Assembly (NCBI GenBank): GCA_001821395.1
Contig: MHLM01000006.1
Coordinates: forward strand, 9,733 to 73,732
Direction: 5' to 3'
DNA length: 64,000 nt
Source: Candidatus Lloydbacteria bacterium RIFCSPHIGHO2_02_FULL_50_18
GTDB lineage: Bacteria > Patescibacteriota > Minisyncoccia > Phycocordibacterales > UBA6899
The notes beneath the pieces were generated by a model, which saw only the letters and a program-made list of their open reading frames with translations, had not been told where the DNA came from and did not search any database. This document shows positions 3,407 to 51,302 of the stretch, in pieces. Position 1 is the first letter of the stretch. Every line of letters begins with the position of its first letter. Both the position numbers and the translations under genes were made by a program.

Positions 3407-4880
3407 ATGTTTTTTTGTCTAACATCTCTAAGAGAGATCGGGATCCCCTTTTTAGGTCAGAACTATTCTGAGACCATTCCTCTACTACCACTCGGAGTCC
3501 TTTTTCTTTAATACCATTCCCTTGAGTAGATATGTAGAGCGGAATATTAAGATTTGCGTTATTGTTGAGGATATTTTGATTGTCGATCACTTTCGTAAAA
3601 TTTGGTATATCAATAAATTCCTTAAATGCTGCATGAATTCTTTCAACATGTGGATCTTCAAGAAAAGAAAAAGCATTCTGCCGCGTTACTTCTTTAACAG
3701 CATTTATAAAAAGTACTCTACCTTTTCGTTCTTTAGGTTTGTCCCAACGGCAAACCAACAAGCAGGCCTCCATGGGTGAGTTGTAAAATAGATTTGGGCC
3801 CAAACCGATGACTGCTTCGATTACGTCATCCTTTAGCATTTTTTCTCTGAACTCCCGCTCAGAATCACGAAAGAGAACCCCGTGAGGCCAAAGGACAATG
3901 CTCCGGCCGTTTTTCTTGTCTAGGCTTTTGAGAATATGCTGCTCAAAAGCATAGTCTGCACATCCTTGTGGAGGGGTGCCGTAAATGTTTCTCCCGTAAG
4001 GATCATTCGTCCACGCATCTCGATTCCACCTCTTAACTGAATACGGCGGGTTCGCAAGGATGACGTCGAAGGTTTTAAGTTTGTCGTCCTCCAAAAACTT
4101 TGGGCTAGACAATGTGTCTCCACGCTCAATATGAAAGTCCTCGATTCCATGAAGAAACATGTTCATTCGCGCGATGGAGGATGTCATCAGATTCAACTCT
4201 TGCCCATAGAGCTTAAGCGTTCGGTATTCTTTACTCTGGTCCTTAAGTTGGTTTACGCAGTTCAGTAATAACCCACCAGAACCACAAGTTGGATCGTATA
4301 CGCTCTCACCTGGCTGGGGGTTCATTATCAAGCTCATTAAACGAACGACCGTACGATTGGTGTAGAACTCAGCAGCTGTATGCCCACTATCATCTGCAAA
4401 CTTCTTGATAAGGAATTCATATGCATTACCAAGTTCGTCATTGGGAACATTGGCAATGCTTAGGTCTTGTTCAGAAAAATGTTCGAGTAGGTCTATTAGA
4501 ATCTCGTCAGATAGACGACTCTTGTTTGTCCAAGAGGCGTCGCCAAAAATACCGAATAAACGATCCTCGTTCGTCTTTTCAATTTTGCGGAGCGCCTTCT
4601 GTAGGGCATCCCCCACATTAACCGTCACCTGTCGAACATCATTCCAGTGTGCCCCTTTGGGAATTTGGAATCTATGATTTTCATCAAATTTTGCATATTC
4701 TTTGTCGCCCCCCGATTCATTGAGTGCCCGCTCGTATTCTTCTTTGTAGACATCACAGATGCGCTTATAAAATAATAAGGGGAAAATATATTGCTTGTAG
4801 TCTCCAGCATCAATGACACCACGAAGAAGTGTCGCCGCTCCCCAAAGATATCTTTCCAGTTCTTGTTTTTTAATAGCCAT
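3393..4880 (-). CDS. hsdM: Type I R-M N6-adenine DNA methyltransferase HsdM (copy 1, NPPY type)
   Basis: 495 aa. HsdM N-domain FPLLFYKRICD. AdoMet motif VYDPTCGSGGLLL. Catalytic motif ANPPYS. Confidence 0.9.
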   Translation of the reverse strand: MAIKKQELERYLWGAATLLRGVIDAGDYKQYIFPLLFYKRICDVYKEEYERALNESGGDKEYAKFDENHRFQIPKGAHWNDVRQVTVNVGDALQKALRKIEKTNEDRLFGIFGDASWTNKSRLSDEILIDLLEHFSEQDLSIANVPNDELGNAYEFLIKKFADDSGHTAAEFYTNRTVVRLMSLIMNPQPGESVYDPTCGSGGLLLNCVNQLKDQSKEYRTLKLYGQELNLMTSSIARMNMFLHGIEDFHIERGDTLSSPKFLEDDKLKTFDVILANPPYSVKRWNRDAWTNDPYGRNIYGTPPQGCADYAFEQHILKSLDKKNGRSIVLWPHGVLFRDSEREFREKMLKDDVIEAVIGLGPNLFYNSPMEACLLVCRWDKPKERKGRVLFINAVKEVTRQNAFSFLEDPHVERIHAAFKEFIDIPNFTKVIDNQNILNNNANLNIPLYISTQGNGIKEKGLRVVVEEWSQNSSDLKRGSRSLLEMLDKKTYENS

Positions 4881-28589: not shown

Positions 28590-29060
28590 CTACTCGTCAT
28601 CAGAAAATTCTTCCTGCAGTTTTGGGAAATGTTTATCCAAATAACTCTGCAGGATGATGGCCGCAGCCGACGCATCATTTTGGGGATTATCCCCCTGCAA
28701 ATGCATTGCTTCCCGGGAAGAAAGCACTTCGTTCATAAGAAAAATGGGGAGCGACGTCGTCGTCTTCAACTGTCCCATGAACACGCCGATCTTTTTCATG
28801 ATCGGATTCGGTAGATTCTGAAAATTCAACGACTCACCAATAACGATGGCATCAATGTGTTCCTTTTGACAAATAGCAACAATATCCTCGATCAAGGAGT
28901 GAGTATTCAAGATGACGCACAAAGGAAAGGCCATCGTTCCCCCATCTGGGGCAACCGCAAGCCCAACGCGCTTTGTTCCAAAATCAATACCTAAATATTT
29001 CATCTCTACACAGTAGCGCACGTTCTCTGAGGGCACAACGTGATGAGTTTCGGTGAGCAA
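28590..29060 (-). CDS. ruvX: Holliday-junction resolvase-like RuvX/YqgF
   Basis: MKYLGIDFGTKRVGLAVA motif. Probable start at 29003. Confidence 0.8.
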   Translation of the reverse strand: MLTETHHVVPSENVRYCVEMKYLGIDFGTKRVGLAVAPDGGTMAFPLCVILNTHSLIEDIVAICQKEHIDAIVIGESLNFQNLPNPIMKKIGVFMGQLKTTTSLPIFLMNEVLSSREAMHLQGDNPQNDASAAAIILQSYLDKHFPKLQEEFSDDE

Positions 29061-29123
29061 TCAAGCAAAGCGCTCTCCTTTGACTAATCAAAATGGCGCC
29101 ACATGGCGCTCATTTTTAACGGG

Positions 29124-29210
29124 CGGAGGAGGTGAGATTCGAACTCACGGTCCACTTACATGGACGACGGTTTTCAAGACCGTTGCCTTAAACCACTCAG
29201 CCACTCCTCC
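29124..29210 (-). tRNA. tRNA-Ser (anticodon UGA)
   Basis: Reverse complement GGAGGAG...CTCCTCC acceptor. Anticodon stem-loop ACGGT-CTTGAAA-ACCGT. Long variable arm. T-loop TTCGAAT. 87 nt. Confidence 0.85.
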
Positions 29211-29342
29211 CTTATTGCACTCAGCCTCTCTTTCTAAATCGAACGAAACGCACAAATTCATTCGTGCTCATCACTATACTGAAAAATAGATAATTGGCAA
29301 AAGATCAATGTGGTATTGCTAATTCTTTTTTAATCGGAGCGC

Positions 29343-46776: not shown

Positions 46777-47307
46777 ATGTCCGGTCACAGCAAGTGGGCG
46801 CAAATTAAACGGCAAAAAGGTGCGGAGGACTCGAAGAAATCGAAGGTATTTGGAAAACTCGGTAGTCTCATAGCAACGGAATCCCGTAAGGCCGGAGGTG
46901 ATGTCAACGCGCCGGGCCTGCGTATGCTGATCGAGAAAGCAAAAAAAGAGAACATGCCAAAAGACACAATCGAACGCGCCGTTAAAAAAGGCGCCGGAGG
47001 TGAGGTCGAGACCATGGAGGCACTCACCTACGAGGGGTACGGGCCGGGCGGCTGCGCGCTCATCATCGAGGCATTCACCAGTAATCGGAACAAAGCATCC
47101 CAAGAGATCAAACACATCTTAACAAGAAGCGGGGGATCGCTTGCCGCACAAGGAGCTGCCGCGTGGGCTTTCACAAAAACAGAGGAAGGATGGGAGCCAA
47201 ACTCCACCATTCCACTCTCCGACGAAGATGGTGCGGTACTCTCGACTATCATCGAAGACCTTGAGAACAATGACGAAGTACAGGAGGTCTTCACCAACGC
47301 CGACTAG
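46777..47307 (+). CDS. YebC/PmpR-family protein (short)
   Basis: MSGHSKWAQIKRQKGAEDSKKSKVFGKL signature N-terminus. 176 aa, which is shorter than typical. Confidence 0.7.
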   Translation: MSGHSKWAQIKRQKGAEDSKKSKVFGKLGSLIATESRKAGGDVNAPGLRMLIEKAKKENMPKDTIERAVKKGAGGEVETMEALTYEGYGPGGCALIIEAFTSNRNKASQEIKHILTRSGGSLAAQGAAAWAFTKTEEGWEPNSTIPLSDEDGAVLSTIIEDLENNDEVQEVFTNAD

Positions 47308-47471
47308 TCAATCACGAGAGGTGCTGCGACTGAAGTACTTTTCACGATTTGTTTTTTCATCATACAATACGCATCCCAGTAACTCAGTAGCCCGAGATAA
47401 AAAGCGGGTGACAATGTGTCATATCAACCACCATACTATTCGACATTTAGAGCATTTGCTACTATAAGCAA

Positions 47472-47855
47472 ATGCTCTATCATTCGAAAGCAAAATTGGA
47501 AAAATTGAAAAAGAAACGGATCGCGGCACGATATGATATGTCCGGACGACCGACCCCCGAAGAACGAGCACGAAGACTTTTGCATGCAGAGCCGATCTGG
47601 GGACCAATACTCCGCGAATGTCTCGCCATCGCGGACGAGAAAGAACGCAGTAAAAAGAGCACGAGTGGCTTTGCTGGTGCATGGGTCATGCAAGCACTGC
47701 GAGCGAAAGGTATCACTCCTCCAAACAATCTGCGTACCCCAGCCTGCCTTGGTATTTTGAAGTTAGTCGCGACGACACGCTCCGGGAATCGCGCCTACTA
47801 CCACATCCCCGATCCAAAAGGTCTCGCCAGGGCATTAAAAAGTTCGACCCGCTGA
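47472..47855 (+). CDS. Hypothetical protein
   Basis: 127-aa ORF. No family recognised. Confidence 0.3.
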   Translation: MLYHSKAKLEKLKKKRIAARYDMSGRPTPEERARRLLHAEPIWGPILRECLAIADEKERSKKSTSGFAGAWVMQALRAKGITPPNNLRTPACLGILKLVATTRSGNRAYYHIPDPKGLARALKSSTR

Positions 47856-47906
47856 GTAGCGAGGCTTCCACTGCTCCGCTCACCCCAATATCCACATTTG
47901 TGAATC

Positions 47907-48486
47907 TGCACATGCTTATCGTAGCGACCTGAATTTCACGACCGCAGGGAGATGAAATTGGAAGTACTCTCTATGGTGCAAATGCAAGATGAACCAATTG
48001 GTGGAGAAGACTTCATCTTCCTTTATGAATTAGGCGCTTCAAAATGAAGCTCCACGCAGCAAGCTGTACCCTCGCTCGCTCCGCTCCGCATCGGCGTGGT
48101 ATCTCAGGAGCTCCGCTCTAGATTATCTTGAGAAACCAACGGTTTCTCAGGCTCTTCCTCAGCGGAGTCCCCGCCGCAAGCGGACGGGGTATGGAGAGAA
48201 ATGAAGCCCCCCGAGGCAGAGCATACCCTCACTCCGCTACCGCTCCGTATCGACAGAATATCGAGAGATTCGCCCTAGACCACCCTGAGAAACCAACGGT
48301 TTCTCAGGCTCTTCCTTGGTGGAGACCCTGTAGTAGAACCACGAGGAATTGAGAGACTGAAAACTGGTGTGTCGATATTATCGATACCACAGACGGTGTC
48401 CAAAAAGGGGAGGTGTCGGATGAAACAAATTATCGAATAACTACCGCCATTATGTTTTCTCTTTGCACATGCTTATAGTAGCAAAT
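47907..48486. repeat. About 580-bp noncoding segment bounded by 21-bp direct repeats; contains two ~100-bp direct repeat units, each with the perfect 19-bp palindrome GAGAAACCAACGGTTTCTC
   Basis: Flank repeats TGCACATGCTTATCGTAGCGA (47907-47927) and TGCACATGCTTATAGTAGCAA (48466-48486). Palindromes at 48130-48148 and 48287-48305. Unit 1 about 48066-48160, unit 2 about 48224-48325. Confidence 0.5.
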
Positions 48487-48769
48487 GCGAAGAGTAAAAT
48501 TACTGTTGCAACTAATTTCCGTTAGGTATCACCACAATTCAGGGGAACAAGATTTCAAGAAATTATTTCGCACGAAGTTTCAACGTATCAAAAATACAAA
48601 GGGCCAGTTCGATCACCATGGGCAGGAGCCCGGGGGTTAATCGTCGGCTAGAGTGTGGAAGTGAAATAGGGCATCAGCGAAGCGCTGGTGAGTTTTACGC
48701 ACCGCAGCGCCTATTACTCAAACTGCGCGTCCATTCCCGTGCAGAGCACGGGATTTTAATTCCGCACAA

Positions 48770-48808
48770 TAAAAAGCCCCGCGCCGTATTTGCATACATG
48801 CGTGGGGC
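48770..48808 (-). terminator. Rho-independent terminator for the 625-aa gene
   Basis: GCCCCGCG...CGTGGGGC hairpin with T-run on the minus strand. Confidence 0.5.
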
Positions 48809-48851
48809 GATATTGAAGGTCAAAATATCAGCATGACACAAGAAATCCAAG

Positions 48852-50729
48852 TTACCCAGCATCAGACTTGCGGATACGGAAGACAAACTGGTAGCTCGCA
48901 CTCCACCTACCCGAGGGCTCCGCATGGCTCGTGTTGAGCCACAGACCATCATCGTTCCGATAGAGGTTGAATATGTTCGGGTAGCCATCGCGGACAGAAA
49001 TTTGTTTAATTCCTATGCGCATCCATTCGGGATTGTCAGTGGCGAGGCGCAGTGCGGGACCCACTTCGGGAGGACAGAGTTCCAGTCCCCACTCGTTTGC
49101 TCGCTTGTATATTTCATCAGTCGTTGCACCTTGTGAAAGTCCGAGGTCGAAAACGGTGAGGCGTACGAGTGCGATATGCTCGCCGGATGGAAGTGTGACG
49201 AACTCAGGACTTTCCAAGAGTTGCTGTGCATAGGTACCAATTTTGATGTTTTTCTCTGTAAGTGCATTGAGGTATTCTTCTTTGGCTTTTCCTCCGATCT
49301 CGATGTTGTATGTTTGGAGTTTGCCTTCGGGAAAAGTGGTATAGATATGTTCGATGTTTGATTGAAAGATTTTGGAGGAAAGTGTTCCCACATAGGCGAT
49401 AGTATCCGTGGTAACCTCGCCTTCATTGTGCGCGATCTGTTCTTTTGTGCAACCGAAGATCATTGGCATGTCTTCTCCGGGGTTTCTTTTATCGCGGAGT
49501 TCTTTGATGCGCGGGTCTTTCTTGTAGCCAAAGCCTTCTATCGAAGTGTCAACTTCATAGAGGAAGGTGAGGTCTTCTTTGGAGAATGATTCGCCCTTCT
49601 TTGTCTTCTGTTCAAGCAGCGTGAGATACCTCATGTCTTCCGACTTTTTTTCATAGGAGGCTCCATCGGGAAATTCCTTCATTTTCAGGGCTATGACGGG
49701 AGCGATGAAGGGGTCGATGTTTTGATTGGGAGCGATGCCGCGGACCTCAGCGATGCTTCCCTCTTGCATGCGGATGGCGGCACGGGGAATGACTGCTTCA
49801 CCGTCCTGGTTTATTGAGTAGTATACGAAGAAGTCACCTCCTTCGAGCTGTGTCTGTGCAGTGCTCATGTTTGCGGTGCACCATTCGAGGGGATAGCCGT
49901 CGAGTGAGCGGACGAGCGGGGTGGGGTCTGAGTGTTGCGGATAGGTGACCCACTCGCCGCGCGTTTCTTCAAGCCCTTCTTTGCTATATGCAGGAAGCTC
50001 GATCAAGAATTGGGTATAGAGCTTGGGGAAGCTTTCCCCCGCAAGGAGGGTGGCAAACTCCTCATCGAAAAGCTTAGTACTCGTATTTGGTACGGGCATG
50101 CGCTCGCCTTTTGCTTTTTGTTGCTCGGTGATGCGTTTTTCCATTGCGGCGACGACCATACCCAGTGCGCGAGGGTTGAGCGGAGGAAATGGTGCAACGG
50201 TATTCTTTTCACGCTTCGCAAAGCGTGCGGATTCTTTTCCTTCTTCGTCTTCCGCCTTCTCAAACTTTCCCATATTGACCATCTGGGTGAATGCCCAATA
50301 CTTTGCCCATATGGGGTATTGTGCATCGGGTGAAGTGAGATAGTCGACCCACTTATCGAGGCTTTCTTCTTGGGCATGGATGATTTCCTCCTGCTTTTTT
50401 TCTTTGTATTCGTTGGTGATTTCAACCGTACCATGTCCGAGATTGCGGGCGATGCGTTGCTCGAGGAGGTATGCGGCCTCGGGTACTTCGTCCGGAGTGA
50501 TGACGTATTCCTTTTTATAATAGTCCTTGATGCGCTCGAGGACTTCCGGATTGTCGGGGTGTCCCATGTGGGTCTCTTCAAGAACACGCATCCAATCCGC
50601 GATCTTGTCTGCGGGTTTTTGGTGTACTTCCTCACCTGCACGTGCGCGCTGTGTCTGCTCGTACTCAACGGGGTCGGAAATGTGGAGTGCGGGGTCTTTT
50701 TGGTGGAGGAATTGTTCGGGGGATTCCAT
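48852..50729 (-). CDS. Large hypothetical cytoplasmic protein (625 aa), no recognisable domain
   Basis: Long uninterrupted ORF with protein-like composition. Terminator downstream. Confidence 0.6.
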   Translation of the reverse strand: MESPEQFLHQKDPALHISDPVEYEQTQRARAGEEVHQKPADKIADWMRVLEETHMGHPDNPEVLERIKDYYKKEYVITPDEVPEAAYLLEQRIARNLGHGTVEITNEYKEKKQEEIIHAQEESLDKWVDYLTSPDAQYPIWAKYWAFTQMVNMGKFEKAEDEEGKESARFAKREKNTVAPFPPLNPRALGMVVAAMEKRITEQQKAKGERMPVPNTSTKLFDEEFATLLAGESFPKLYTQFLIELPAYSKEGLEETRGEWVTYPQHSDPTPLVRSLDGYPLEWCTANMSTAQTQLEGGDFFVYYSINQDGEAVIPRAAIRMQEGSIAEVRGIAPNQNIDPFIAPVIALKMKEFPDGASYEKKSEDMRYLTLLEQKTKKGESFSKEDLTFLYEVDTSIEGFGYKKDPRIKELRDKRNPGEDMPMIFGCTKEQIAHNEGEVTTDTIAYVGTLSSKIFQSNIEHIYTTFPEGKLQTYNIEIGGKAKEEYLNALTEKNIKIGTYAQQLLESPEFVTLPSGEHIALVRLTVFDLGLSQGATTDEIYKRANEWGLELCPPEVGPALRLATDNPEWMRIGIKQISVRDGYPNIFNLYRNDDGLWLNTSHAEPSGRWSASYQFVFRIRKSDAG

Positions 50730-50810
50730 ACTCCAAATCTATCAGAGATGGGTTTCTCCGTCTAACAGCGAACACTTGCTTCCTGATGTCCGATACTTAA
50801 TACTGATGTC

Positions 50811-51302
50811 ATGACTGTCTTAGCCATCGATCCGGGATTTGGGCGGTGTGGGGTTGCCGTACTTGAGGGAGACGGAGCGAGGGCAACCCTCCTTTATTCT
50901 GCGTGCGTGGAAACAGGTCCGAAGAATACTTTTCCTGAACGCCTACTTACGGTCGCAACTGAAGTGACGCGTCTCATTGAAGTGTATACACCGGAAACAA
51001 TGTCCATCGAGGAGATCTATTTCACCAACAACGCAAAAACGGCGATCAATGTCGCGGAGATCCGCGGCATGCTTATTTACCTTGCCACTTCACGAAAAAT
51101 TCCCCTTGTTGAATTCAATCCCCTTGCGGTCAAGATCGCCATAACGGGGTACGGCCGCGCGACGAAAGAGCAGGTTACCAAAATGGTGAAAAAACTTGTC
51201 GCTATCCCAAACAAGAAGATGCTCGACGACGAATATGACGCCATCGCCCTTGGCCTCACCGCTCTCGCCCACGCGCGACACACACAATCTCGAAAGCTCT
51301 AA
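50811..51302 (+). CDS. ruvC: Crossover junction endodeoxyribonuclease RuvC
   Basis: VLAIDPGFGRCGVAVLE N-terminal catalytic Asp context. ..DEYDAIALGLTAL.. C-terminal catalytic region. Confidence 0.85.
   Translation: MTVLAIDPGFGRCGVAVLEGDGARATLLYSACVETGPKNTFPERLLTVATEVTRLIEVYTPETMSIEEIYFTNNAKTAINVAEIRGMLIYLATSRKIPLVEFNPLAVKIAITGYGRATKEQVTKMVKKLVAIPNKKMLDDEYDAIALGLTALAHARHTQSRKL

Follow-up and report, generated by a model that had tools for sequence, protein, structure and literature searches.

The described systems closest to the locus analysed here are the autoregulated winged-helix repressors of the PadR, MarR and ArsR types, the repetitive extragenic palindromes with their associated tyrosine transposases (REP/RAYT) together with the enterobacterial repetitive intergenic consensus (ERIC) and bacterial interspersed mosaic elements (BIME), tandem small RNAs (sRNAs), miniature inverted-repeat transposable elements (MITEs) and other insertions bounded by a target-site duplication, and, finally, integron attC cassettes, Xer/dif modules and integrative mobile elements exploiting Xer (IMEX). 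The locus lies in a window of 64 kb (the whole stretch of DNA analysed, 64,000 nt) from a metagenome-assembled genome of Candidatus Lloydbacteria (Parcubacteria, Candidate Phyla Radiation, CPR). It comprises 536 bp of non-coding DNA between two 21-bp direct repeats, with two tandem units of 157 bp inside, next to a gene encoding a 127-residue protein with a predicted winged helix. As a whole it is best explained, with a probability of roughly 0.45, by three statements taken together: the direct repeats are cis-sites of the winged-helix gene, the insert is a rearrangement patch with a duplicated 157-bp unit, and the core shared by the two units is an RNA element in the 3' region of this gene. 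The feature is best classed as a non-coding patch, specific to the strain, beside the operator-like palindromes of a winged-helix gene that is itself uncharacterised, with a function possibly at the RNA level; as it stands, this strain-specific duplication of non-coding DNA is a local curiosity of one CPR genome.

Comparison with described systems

With autoregulated PadR-, MarR- and ArsR-type repressors the locus shares a small winged-helix protein, a near-perfect palindrome (arms of at least 8 nt around a 6-nt centre) placed over the putative -10 element and the start of the gene, and extra copies of this palindrome nearby. It differs from them in that the 127-residue protein is not a member of these families by sequence, copies of the palindrome are also found downstream of the gene, the arms may reach 21-34 nt, the genomic contexts are unrelated, and binding is a prediction.

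As in REP/RAYT, ERIC and BIME, the gene is bracketed by palindromes of its own, and new palindrome copies are seen beside rearrangements; moreover, unit 1 is an imperfect palindrome of ~150 nt, which is similar to the size of an ERIC element. However, the 127-residue protein is a predicted winged helix and not an HUH/Y1 transposase, with no match to Y1_Tnp or any other Pfam family, and the palindromes are not dispersed as REP sequences are: there are three of them in 64 kb, all at the gene, while the 157-bp unit has been seen only here.

Tandem paralogous sRNAs with a conserved C/U-rich seed are known from Listeria (LhrC1-4), Pseudomonas (PrrF1/PrrF2) and E. coli (OmrA/OmrB). The window units resemble them in being arranged head to tail, with diverged flanks around an invariant core, and in having a stable hairpin beside an unpaired pyrimidine-rich CUCUUCCU, but they have no promoter, U-tract terminator or Rfam family of their own, and their conservation is limited to one strain lineage.

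A short non-coding segment that is bracketed by direct repeats, and that is missing from the equivalent site of related loci, recalls MITEs and other insertions with a target-site duplication. Unlike these, it has no terminal inverted repeats, its bounding repeat is a pre-existing, putatively functional 21-bp motif, and it is a single copy in the collections searched. Unrelated segments delimited by copies of one palindrome, as in attC cassettes, Xer/dif modules and IMEX, are found both in the window and in one of the related loci (L036). Still, the motif is unlike dif or attC, there is no adjacent integrase or Xer gene, and the locus is situated ~10 kb from dnaA/dnaN and not at the terminus; besides, the conserved part of the window hairpin units is the apex, whereas in attC it is the base.

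Palindromes at the winged-helix gene

The features on which the interpretation of the repeats is based are the following.

47452-47475: near-palindrome P1, GCATTTGCTACTATAAGCAAATGC, 24 nt, overlapping the ATG (47472) of the 127-residue gene
47472-47855, plus strand: the 127-residue gene, with no Pfam, NCBIfam, PHROG or PADLOC family and a predicted winged-helix DNA-binding domain
47907-47927, plus strand: P2', the left direct repeat, a degenerate palindrome with the right arm lost (AGCGACCTG), its centre 64 nt past the stop codon
48464-48488: P2, the right direct repeat, a good copy of the palindrome, 92% complementary to P1

The direct repeats reported in the original prediction are indeed present, TGCACATGCTTATCGTAGCGA at 47907-47927 and TGCACATGCTTATAGTAGCAA at 48464-48484, with 19 of 21 positions identical. 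Both are copies of a conserved near-palindrome of 22-24 bp, CAYWTGCT-N6-AGCAWRTG, with the core TGCT-N6-AGCA. The central 13 nt of the repeat, TGCTTATNGTAGC, are found a third time in the window at 47458-47470, on the opposite strand and within P1; a 19-nt pattern derived from the repeat occurs three times in the window with at most three mismatches, compared to 0.00 occurrences expected from shuffled sequences.

P1 can be read as an extended -10 element (TGcTACTAT) followed, after 6 nt, by the ATG, and is thus a putative leaderless promoter combined with an operator. In the seven aligned homologous loci P1 is unchanged, including the central ACTATA in its asymmetric centre CATTTGCTACTATAAGCAAATGCT, while the preceding 80 nt show no conservation. 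In all seven, CATTTGCTACTATAAGCAAATG is centred 8 nt before the ATG or lies over it, so that the palindrome is found at the start of the gene itself.

P2' occupies the position that the downstream palindrome canonically has in the relatives, and P2, the intact copy, is located 557 bp further on. When read on the minus strand, P2 gives TTTGCTACTATAAGCA, identical to the promoter core of P1. The left arm of both P2' and P2 is the non-consensus TGCACATGC, and therefore one of these copies derives from the other.

The same motif, in two to four copies, flanks homologues of the 127-residue gene in L012, L013, L016/L018, L035, L036, L042 and L044 (our designations of related loci). Its positions in these seven loci follow one plan: one copy is centred 8 nt before the ATG, another is usually found ~130 nt upstream (~80 nt in L036 and L044), and one more stands 51-81 nt past the stop codon. 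The arms CAYWTGCT and AGCAWRTG are sometimes lengthened to 15-34 nt in the relatives. Neither in the related loci (4-12 kb each) nor in the 64-kb window is the motif found beyond the copies at the gene (three in the window). The neighbouring genes differ by lineage, being a methyltransferase and a P-type ATPase, ftsE and ftsX, phosphoglycerate kinase and HIT, a glycosyltransferase cluster, or SMC with DUF2726. Because a third copy lies on the ATG, and the same layout recurs around homologues amid unrelated neighbours, the palindrome looks like an operator-like cognate cis-site of the adjacent winged-helix gene. This conserved, unannotated cassette of a winged-helix gene with palindromes, found in varied Parcubacteria locations and coinciding with rearrangements, is a promising thread for further work.

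The protein has 19 homologues, all of them Parcubacteria-type metagenome proteins, and those encoded in the loci studied here are 51-70% identical to it. Its AlphaFold2 (AF2) model (pLDDT, the per-residue confidence score, 83) consists of helices and a two-strand wing. The best fold matches in PDB are the winged helix of Orc1/Cdc6, PadR, MarR and ArsR, all of them weak (E at least 0.038, with the top matches at 0.04-0.6), but nearly all of the top matches are winged-helix DNA-binding domains, and according to the model the fold is a winged helix despite the weakness of individual matches. No member of this small-gene family was found in viral contigs, where the one 18-mer match, in a phage, is a chance match.

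The most likely role of P1 would be that of an extended -10 promoter for a leaderless mRNA and, at the same time, of an operator for self-repression by the 127-residue protein, with both binding and transcription predicted; the other copies of the palindrome may be auxiliary operators or promoters.

The tandem units and their hairpin

The DNA between the repeats is organised as follows.

47928-48041: left spacer, 43% GC, no significant fold on either strand
48042-48198, plus strand: unit 1, 157 bp, 59% GC, a long imperfect hairpin (z = -3.3 on the plus strand, -3.9 on the minus strand)
48199-48355, plus strand: unit 2, 157 bp, 66-75% identical to unit 1, with only the central hairpin domain kept (z about -1)
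48111-48167, plus strand: hairpin domain of unit 1, with an outer 7-bp stem, an asymmetric internal loop, an inner 11-bp stem and the loop AAC
48268-48324, plus strand: hairpin domain of unit 2, whose copy of the identical core spans 48286-48316
48356-48463: right spacer, 41% GC, no significant fold, with a Shine-Dalgarno-like site and a mini-ORF (open reading frame)

The two units stand head to tail and in register, without net indel; 103 of their 157 positions are identical in the ungapped comparison, and 120 of 161 in the gapped one, which includes small compensating indels. The repetition seen in the original prediction is therefore a real tandem duplication, but the unit is 157 bp long and not ~100 bp. 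What was described there as a perfect 19-bp palindrome consists of two inverted 8-bp arms separated by a 3-nt loop that is not palindromic, GAGAAACC-AAC-GGTTTCTC, and the reverse strand differs at three positions; as RNA it forms an 11-bp stem. The inverted repeat with this loop occurs exactly twice in 64 kb, while 0.02 occurrences are expected.

The hairpin belongs to a core of 31 nt, TGAGAAACCAACGGTTTCTCAGGCTCTTCCT, which is identical in both units and in register (48129-48159 and 48286-48316), and which consists of the hairpin and a pyrimidine-rich 3' tail, AGGCTCTTCCT. Given the divergence of the units, the probability of an identical run of at least 31 nt is 1.5e-5 to 3e-3. The conservation is asymmetric, as the hairpin and the 11 nt 3' of it are identical, while the 6 nt 5' of the stem differ (UUAUCU vs CCACCC). 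Since the core is identical while its flanks have diverged to about 70%, it is probably functional.

In the stems, unit 2 differs from unit 1 by one compensatory pair (U-A to C-G) and by three changes between Watson-Crick and G-U wobble pairs, two of them in the outer stem and one at the base of the inner stem; all four changes preserve pairing on the plus strand only. Of the cells in the 20 pairs of the hairpin, 97.5% are paired, vs 32-55% in slid controls, in a comparison of only two paralogues for which the shuffle control (254/500) is uninformative. The expectation of a highly structured element holds for unit 1 and for the central hairpin, which fold better than shuffled sequences, but not for unit 2 or for either spacer.

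The element is non-coding, as was predicted, because the period of 157 bp shifts the reading frame between the units; in addition, the indels between the units are not multiples of three, none of the 10 stop-to-stop fragments of the region matches Pfam, and no gene is called here in any assembly of this organism. A 25-codon ORF present in each unit (ATG at 48044/48201, TAG at 48119/48276) was rejected as coding, since the two peptides share only 6 of 25 residues and the indels do not keep the frame.

Two ORF-related observations, both without gene support, concern the right end of the element. In the right spacer, a strong Shine-Dalgarno-like GGGGAGG (48407-48413) stands 6 nt before a six-codon mini-ORF, MKQIIE (48420-48440). 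The ATG that makes up the right arm of P2 opens a 51-codon ORF on the plus strand (48485-48640).

Further copies were looked for in the 64-kb window, in 12 related loci, and in 185,579 GTDB species genomes, JGI metagenomes, IMG/VR, PLSDB and INPHARED. The collections were scanned by exact match of 19 or 20 bases; the contig itself lies outside them, and within its own genome the search covered the window. No second copy of the unit or the insert was found in any of these. The exact hairpin pattern has 11 matches in GTDB, none of them in Lloydbacteria, two chance matches in JGI metagenomes, and none in IMG/VR. A covariance model of the hairpin domain found no further copy in the window or the 12 related loci. 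The Rfam 15 search, one of the checks proposed with the original prediction, returned only tRNAs at the gathering score in the window and, when 47300-49000 was searched, nothing at E of at most 10 overlapping 47900-48490, so that the element matches no family. It was also rejected as a transfer-messenger RNA (tmRNA), RNase P, signal recognition particle RNA or 6S RNA, having neither the diagnostic motifs nor an Rfam match.

An unannotated, conserved RNA-like element, GGGGTCGGGGA...TCCCCGTGTAGGAA...TGAGAAACCGAGGGTTTCTCAGGAG, was observed in three loci of other Parcubacteria (L004 4168-4300, L006 905-1040, L008 6120-6255), where it follows rpsI (L004) or tRNA-Gln (L006 and L008); neither Rfam nor ARAGORN recognises it. 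The stem of its hairpin is the same as in the window units, but the alignment reveals no homology beyond the hairpin, and a relationship to the units is unproven. Behind the tRNA-Gln(CUG) of L006 (808-908) and L008 (6050-6135) the 3' half of this tRNA recurs as a long inverted repeat, and farther on its 3' end recurs in direct orientation, an arrangement that is integration-site-like or hairpin-forming.

Function of the units

The favoured explanation proceeds from the palindromes. These long palindromes are prone to rearrangement, and in this lineage the downstream site may have been split or duplicated; the 536 bp of non-coding DNA that now lie between the degenerate canonical copy and the intact copy would have been built around a local tandem duplication of the 157-bp unit. 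The units themselves would be a strand-specific RNA element, carried twice on the plus strand in a ~900-nt 3' region of the winged-helix transcript, which is predicted to end at the following terminator.

48735-48761, plus strand: first convincing intrinsic terminator after the 127-residue gene, TCCCGTGCAGAGCACGGGA then TTTTAATT

Since consensus scans downstream of the 127-residue gene find no convincing plus-strand terminator before 48735, the units are probably located in a long 3' region of its transcript; the same kind of scan finds only weak promoter-like sites at the locus. The single-stranded CUCUUCCU beside the stable hairpin could serve as a binding or seed motif, possibly an anti-Shine-Dalgarno-like one. 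Such a structured RNA element, present in duplicate in the long 3' region of the winged-helix transcript, is weakly supported; if expressed, the hairpin units would join the small number of candidate regulatory RNAs known from CPR bacteria.

Several results weigh against this explanation. Unit 2 and both spacers fold no better than shuffled sequences, and minus-strand RNAs fold at least as well as those of the plus strand. The identity of the minus strand of P2 with the promoter core of P1 predicts transcription of the minus strand through the units instead. There is no Rfam family match, a homologue of the unit was found in no other genome, and the covariation thus compares two paralogues, with a shuffle control (254/500) that does not discriminate. 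The fold matches of the protein are weak (E at least 0.038), and its binding to the palindrome is a prediction. Finally, the identical core could be a short gene-conversion tract and not a product of selection.

A tandem sRNA pair and a protein-binding array, both named in the original prediction, are conceivable readings of the units. Two alternatives are serious ones. According to the first, which we consider unlikely, the 536 bp are functionless, having arisen by illegitimate or palindrome-stimulated recombination and tandem duplication, with the core being a gene-conversion tract or a chance identity. This agrees with the absence of the unit from all the collections scanned, with the variation of the segment between near-identical strains, and with the ordinary, transition-dominated substitutions between the units; moreover, unit 2 has mostly lost the long hairpin of unit 1, and there is no unit-specific promoter or terminator signal. 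However, a perfect run of 31 nt within 66-75% identity is improbable under uniform decay, the run covers exactly the stable hairpin and its non-palindromic tail, and the outer stem has been kept by one compensatory and two wobble changes. CPR genomes are small and compact, and ~1 kb of junk would be unusual in one of them.

The second alternative, somewhat less likely again, places the function at the level of DNA: the two GAGAAACC-N3-GGTTTCTC repeats would be operators of a dimeric regulator (not necessarily the neighbouring one), and they and the palindromes on either side would make up a looped region, regulatory or nucleoprotein in nature. The spacing of 157 bp corresponds to ~15 helical turns and places both sites on the same face of the helix, and it is exact, since the internal indels cancel out; the inverted repeat is present twice in identical form (0.02 expected), set between palindromes that are themselves probable protein sites, and a gene with a predicted DNA-binding fold is next door. 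On the other hand, for a symmetric dimer site one would not expect the asymmetric conservation, with 11 nt kept on the 3' side and 6 nt varying on the 5' side; the region lies between convergent genes, so that on neither strand is there a downstream gene to regulate, and the sequence is unrelated to the palindrome of the winged-helix gene.

Insertion or rearrangement

The ground plan of the related loci includes a single palindrome 51-81 nt past the small gene and nothing like the 536-bp segment. The comparison with an empty site, suggested in the original prediction, thus confirms that relatives have one downstream palindrome and no insert, but this palindrome is a pre-existing motif of the family. 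Relative to the ground plan, the 536 bp appear to be extra, lineage-specific DNA bracketed by a duplicated site.

The interpretation of the repeats as a target-site or att duplication is not supported by this comparison, as they represent a family-wide palindrome with a third copy at 47452-47475 and fixed positions around homologues in seven loci. The presence of two to four copies around every homologue of the neighbouring gene means that the flanking repeat was not made by insertion from a single arbitrary target. The value of the analysis is mainly that of a correction: the apparent target-site duplication turns out to be an operator-like palindrome associated with a gene, and the limits of the polymorphic segment lie elsewhere.

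The variation among strains is concentrated in one segment.

48085-48770: strain-variable segment, marked by contig ends and divergence among near-identical strains

Contigs of the same strain stop at 48084 in three sequencing runs and at 48771 in two runs. The contig L040, 99.6% identical in the region of the 625-residue gene, diverges exactly at 48771/48770; its own sequence at this place (L040 2407-2669) has an insertion of 17 nt, a bidirectional terminator and the part of a convergent DsbA-like gene that encodes the C-terminus; the window lacks this gene. This DsbA-like fragment, used as a query, yielded no homologue, and the left junction of the variant allele was not recovered. Another same-strain contig, L028, otherwise 100% identical, turns to unrelated low-complexity sequence (L028 1195-1287) at window position 48285/48286, the 5' foot of the unit-2 hairpin, which could be a structural variant or an assembly chimera at the hairpin. 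The variable segment holds most of both units and the right repeat, and its ends do not coincide with the repeats. Because the strain contigs break or diverge at 48084 and 48771, and not at the repeats, the population data point to rearrangement rather than to a clean insertion.

A comparable situation is observed in L036. Compared to the 87%-identical L044, it has ~1 kb of extra DNA starting ~20 nt past the downstream palindrome, as well as an extra, fourth palindrome copy, a perfect one of 68 nt. The cassette of L036 is bracketed by a 95-nt duplication of the 3' end of the upstream gene (1914-2008 and 2684-2777; 56 nt at 100% and 39 nt at 79% identity), while a 50-nt direct repeat containing the palindrome (2052-2101 and 3981-4030) brackets 1.9 kb. 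This layout looks like insertion or rearrangement at palindromes. With extra DNA at palindromes both in the window and in L036, these long palindromes thus repeatedly coincide with structural change.

These data bear on the claim that the insert is a mobile element. In its fullest form, a small non-autonomous mobile or integrative element of ~536 bp would have entered the downstream palindrome, with duplication of 21 bp of it, either as a target-site duplication or as attL/attR, with the hairpin units as cargo or recombination substrates. We find this improbable, more so than either of the alternatives considered above. In the relatives one palindrome, without an insert, does occupy the position of the left repeat, and both repeats share the non-consensus left arm TGCACATGC, which makes them related by duplication and not independent sites; the direct repeat around 1.9 kb and the att-like duplication flanking the cassette of L036, as well as the departure of L028 precisely where the unit-2 hairpin has its 5' foot, could also be explained in this way. 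However, the insert lacks terminal inverted repeats (it begins with CCTGAATTTCAC... and ends with ...ATGTTTTCTCTT, which show no complementarity), a target-site duplication of 21 bp is atypical, and family searches of the neighbouring proteins revealed no recombinase or transposase. None of the collections scanned contains a second copy, the strain-variable segment is not bounded by the repeats, and the junction in L028 may be an assembly chimera. Within the scope of the scans the repeated units are unique and there is no evidence of mobility.

A broader reading treats the 127-residue gene and its long palindromes as an undescribed portable module of Parcubacteria, in which the palindromes would be hot spots of recombination or insertion, or true sites where unrelated DNA is gained, lost or swapped; the hairpin patch would then be one captured segment, and the hairpin perhaps a strand-specific recombination or processing site. 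The pointers in this direction are the unrelated gene contexts, the split gene pairs, the att-like duplication in L036 and its ~1 kb of extra DNA relative to L044, to which one may add the differing content of the locus in near-identical strains and the contigs that often end at palindromes. We regard this reading as doubtful, slightly below the simple insertion in likelihood.

The convergent 625-residue gene

Beyond the terminator the next gene runs towards the element.

48852-50729, minus strand: convergent gene for a 625-residue hypothetical protein of a widely conserved CPR family, given as context only

The protein has 981 matches across CPR phyla, the best 120 of the 981 being 42-67% identical to it. 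In its two closest relatives (L031-L033 and L034) the homologue is the target of a diversity-generating retroelement (DGR), with a C-terminal variable region (VR), a template repeat (TR) ~300 nt downstream showing A-to-N differences from it, and then bAvd and a reverse transcriptase (RVT_1). The copy in the window retains a VR-like C-terminus. Using the proteins of the relatives, tblastn revealed neither a reverse transcriptase nor Avd in the window (best E = 0.36), and no TR for the variable region is present in the 64 kb.

That the units are a decayed relic of such a retroelement (a template repeat, spacer RNA or avd) is very improbable and largely refuted: although the closest relatives carry TR, bAvd and reverse transcriptase after the 625-residue homologue, and window positions 48556-48602 are homologous to the post-stop spacer of L034 (z = 6.7), this homology ends at or before the right palindrome, the units are unlike the TR, VR or spacers of the relatives, their differences have a mixed, transition-dominated and not adenine-specific spectrum (G/A 10, C/T 13, others 10) and include indels, and the window has no reverse transcriptase, Avd or TR.

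The 625-residue protein, widely conserved in CPR, a DGR target in close relatives and deprived of the retroelement here, is the other promising thread that emerges from this locus.

Locus setting

Contig MHLI01000010.1 of assembly GCA_001818945.1 is an exact match to the window, and the product of the 127-residue ORF is 100% identical to a Candidatus Lloydbacteria protein. The element is contained in a 1-kb gap that separates convergent genes: ruvB, yebC and the 127-residue ORF (ending at 47855) on the plus-strand side, and the 625-residue ORF (ending at 48852), with ruvC beyond it, on the minus-strand side.

The genes dnaN (56454-57554) and dnaA (57806-59155) are found on the minus strand ~10 kb from the feature, with a cluster of DnaA boxes between them (57592-57798) which coincides with the minimum of the cumulative GC skew. 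This interval (56454-59155) is the probable oriC. The feature has one DnaA box in its vicinity (47888, 8/9 match), but it was rejected as a replication origin, as the true origin signals are at 56-59 kb, while the shift of GC skew near 48 kb mostly tracks the strand of the genes. Its proximity to dnaA/dnaN and the DnaA boxes also led to its rejection as a dif site of the terminus.

Elsewhere in the window, ARAGORN calls a permuted tmRNA at 28596-29216 (minus strand), which overlaps tRNA-Ser at 29122-29210; Rfam reports no tmRNA in the window, and the call is probably false.

Two gene pairs that are usually adjacent are split at the loci studied. In the window, the small-gene cassette and the 625-residue gene stand between yebC and ruvC (46777-51302), and in L013 (5267-7994) the small-gene cassette is located between ftsE and ftsX; both splits are consistent with insertion of the cassette.

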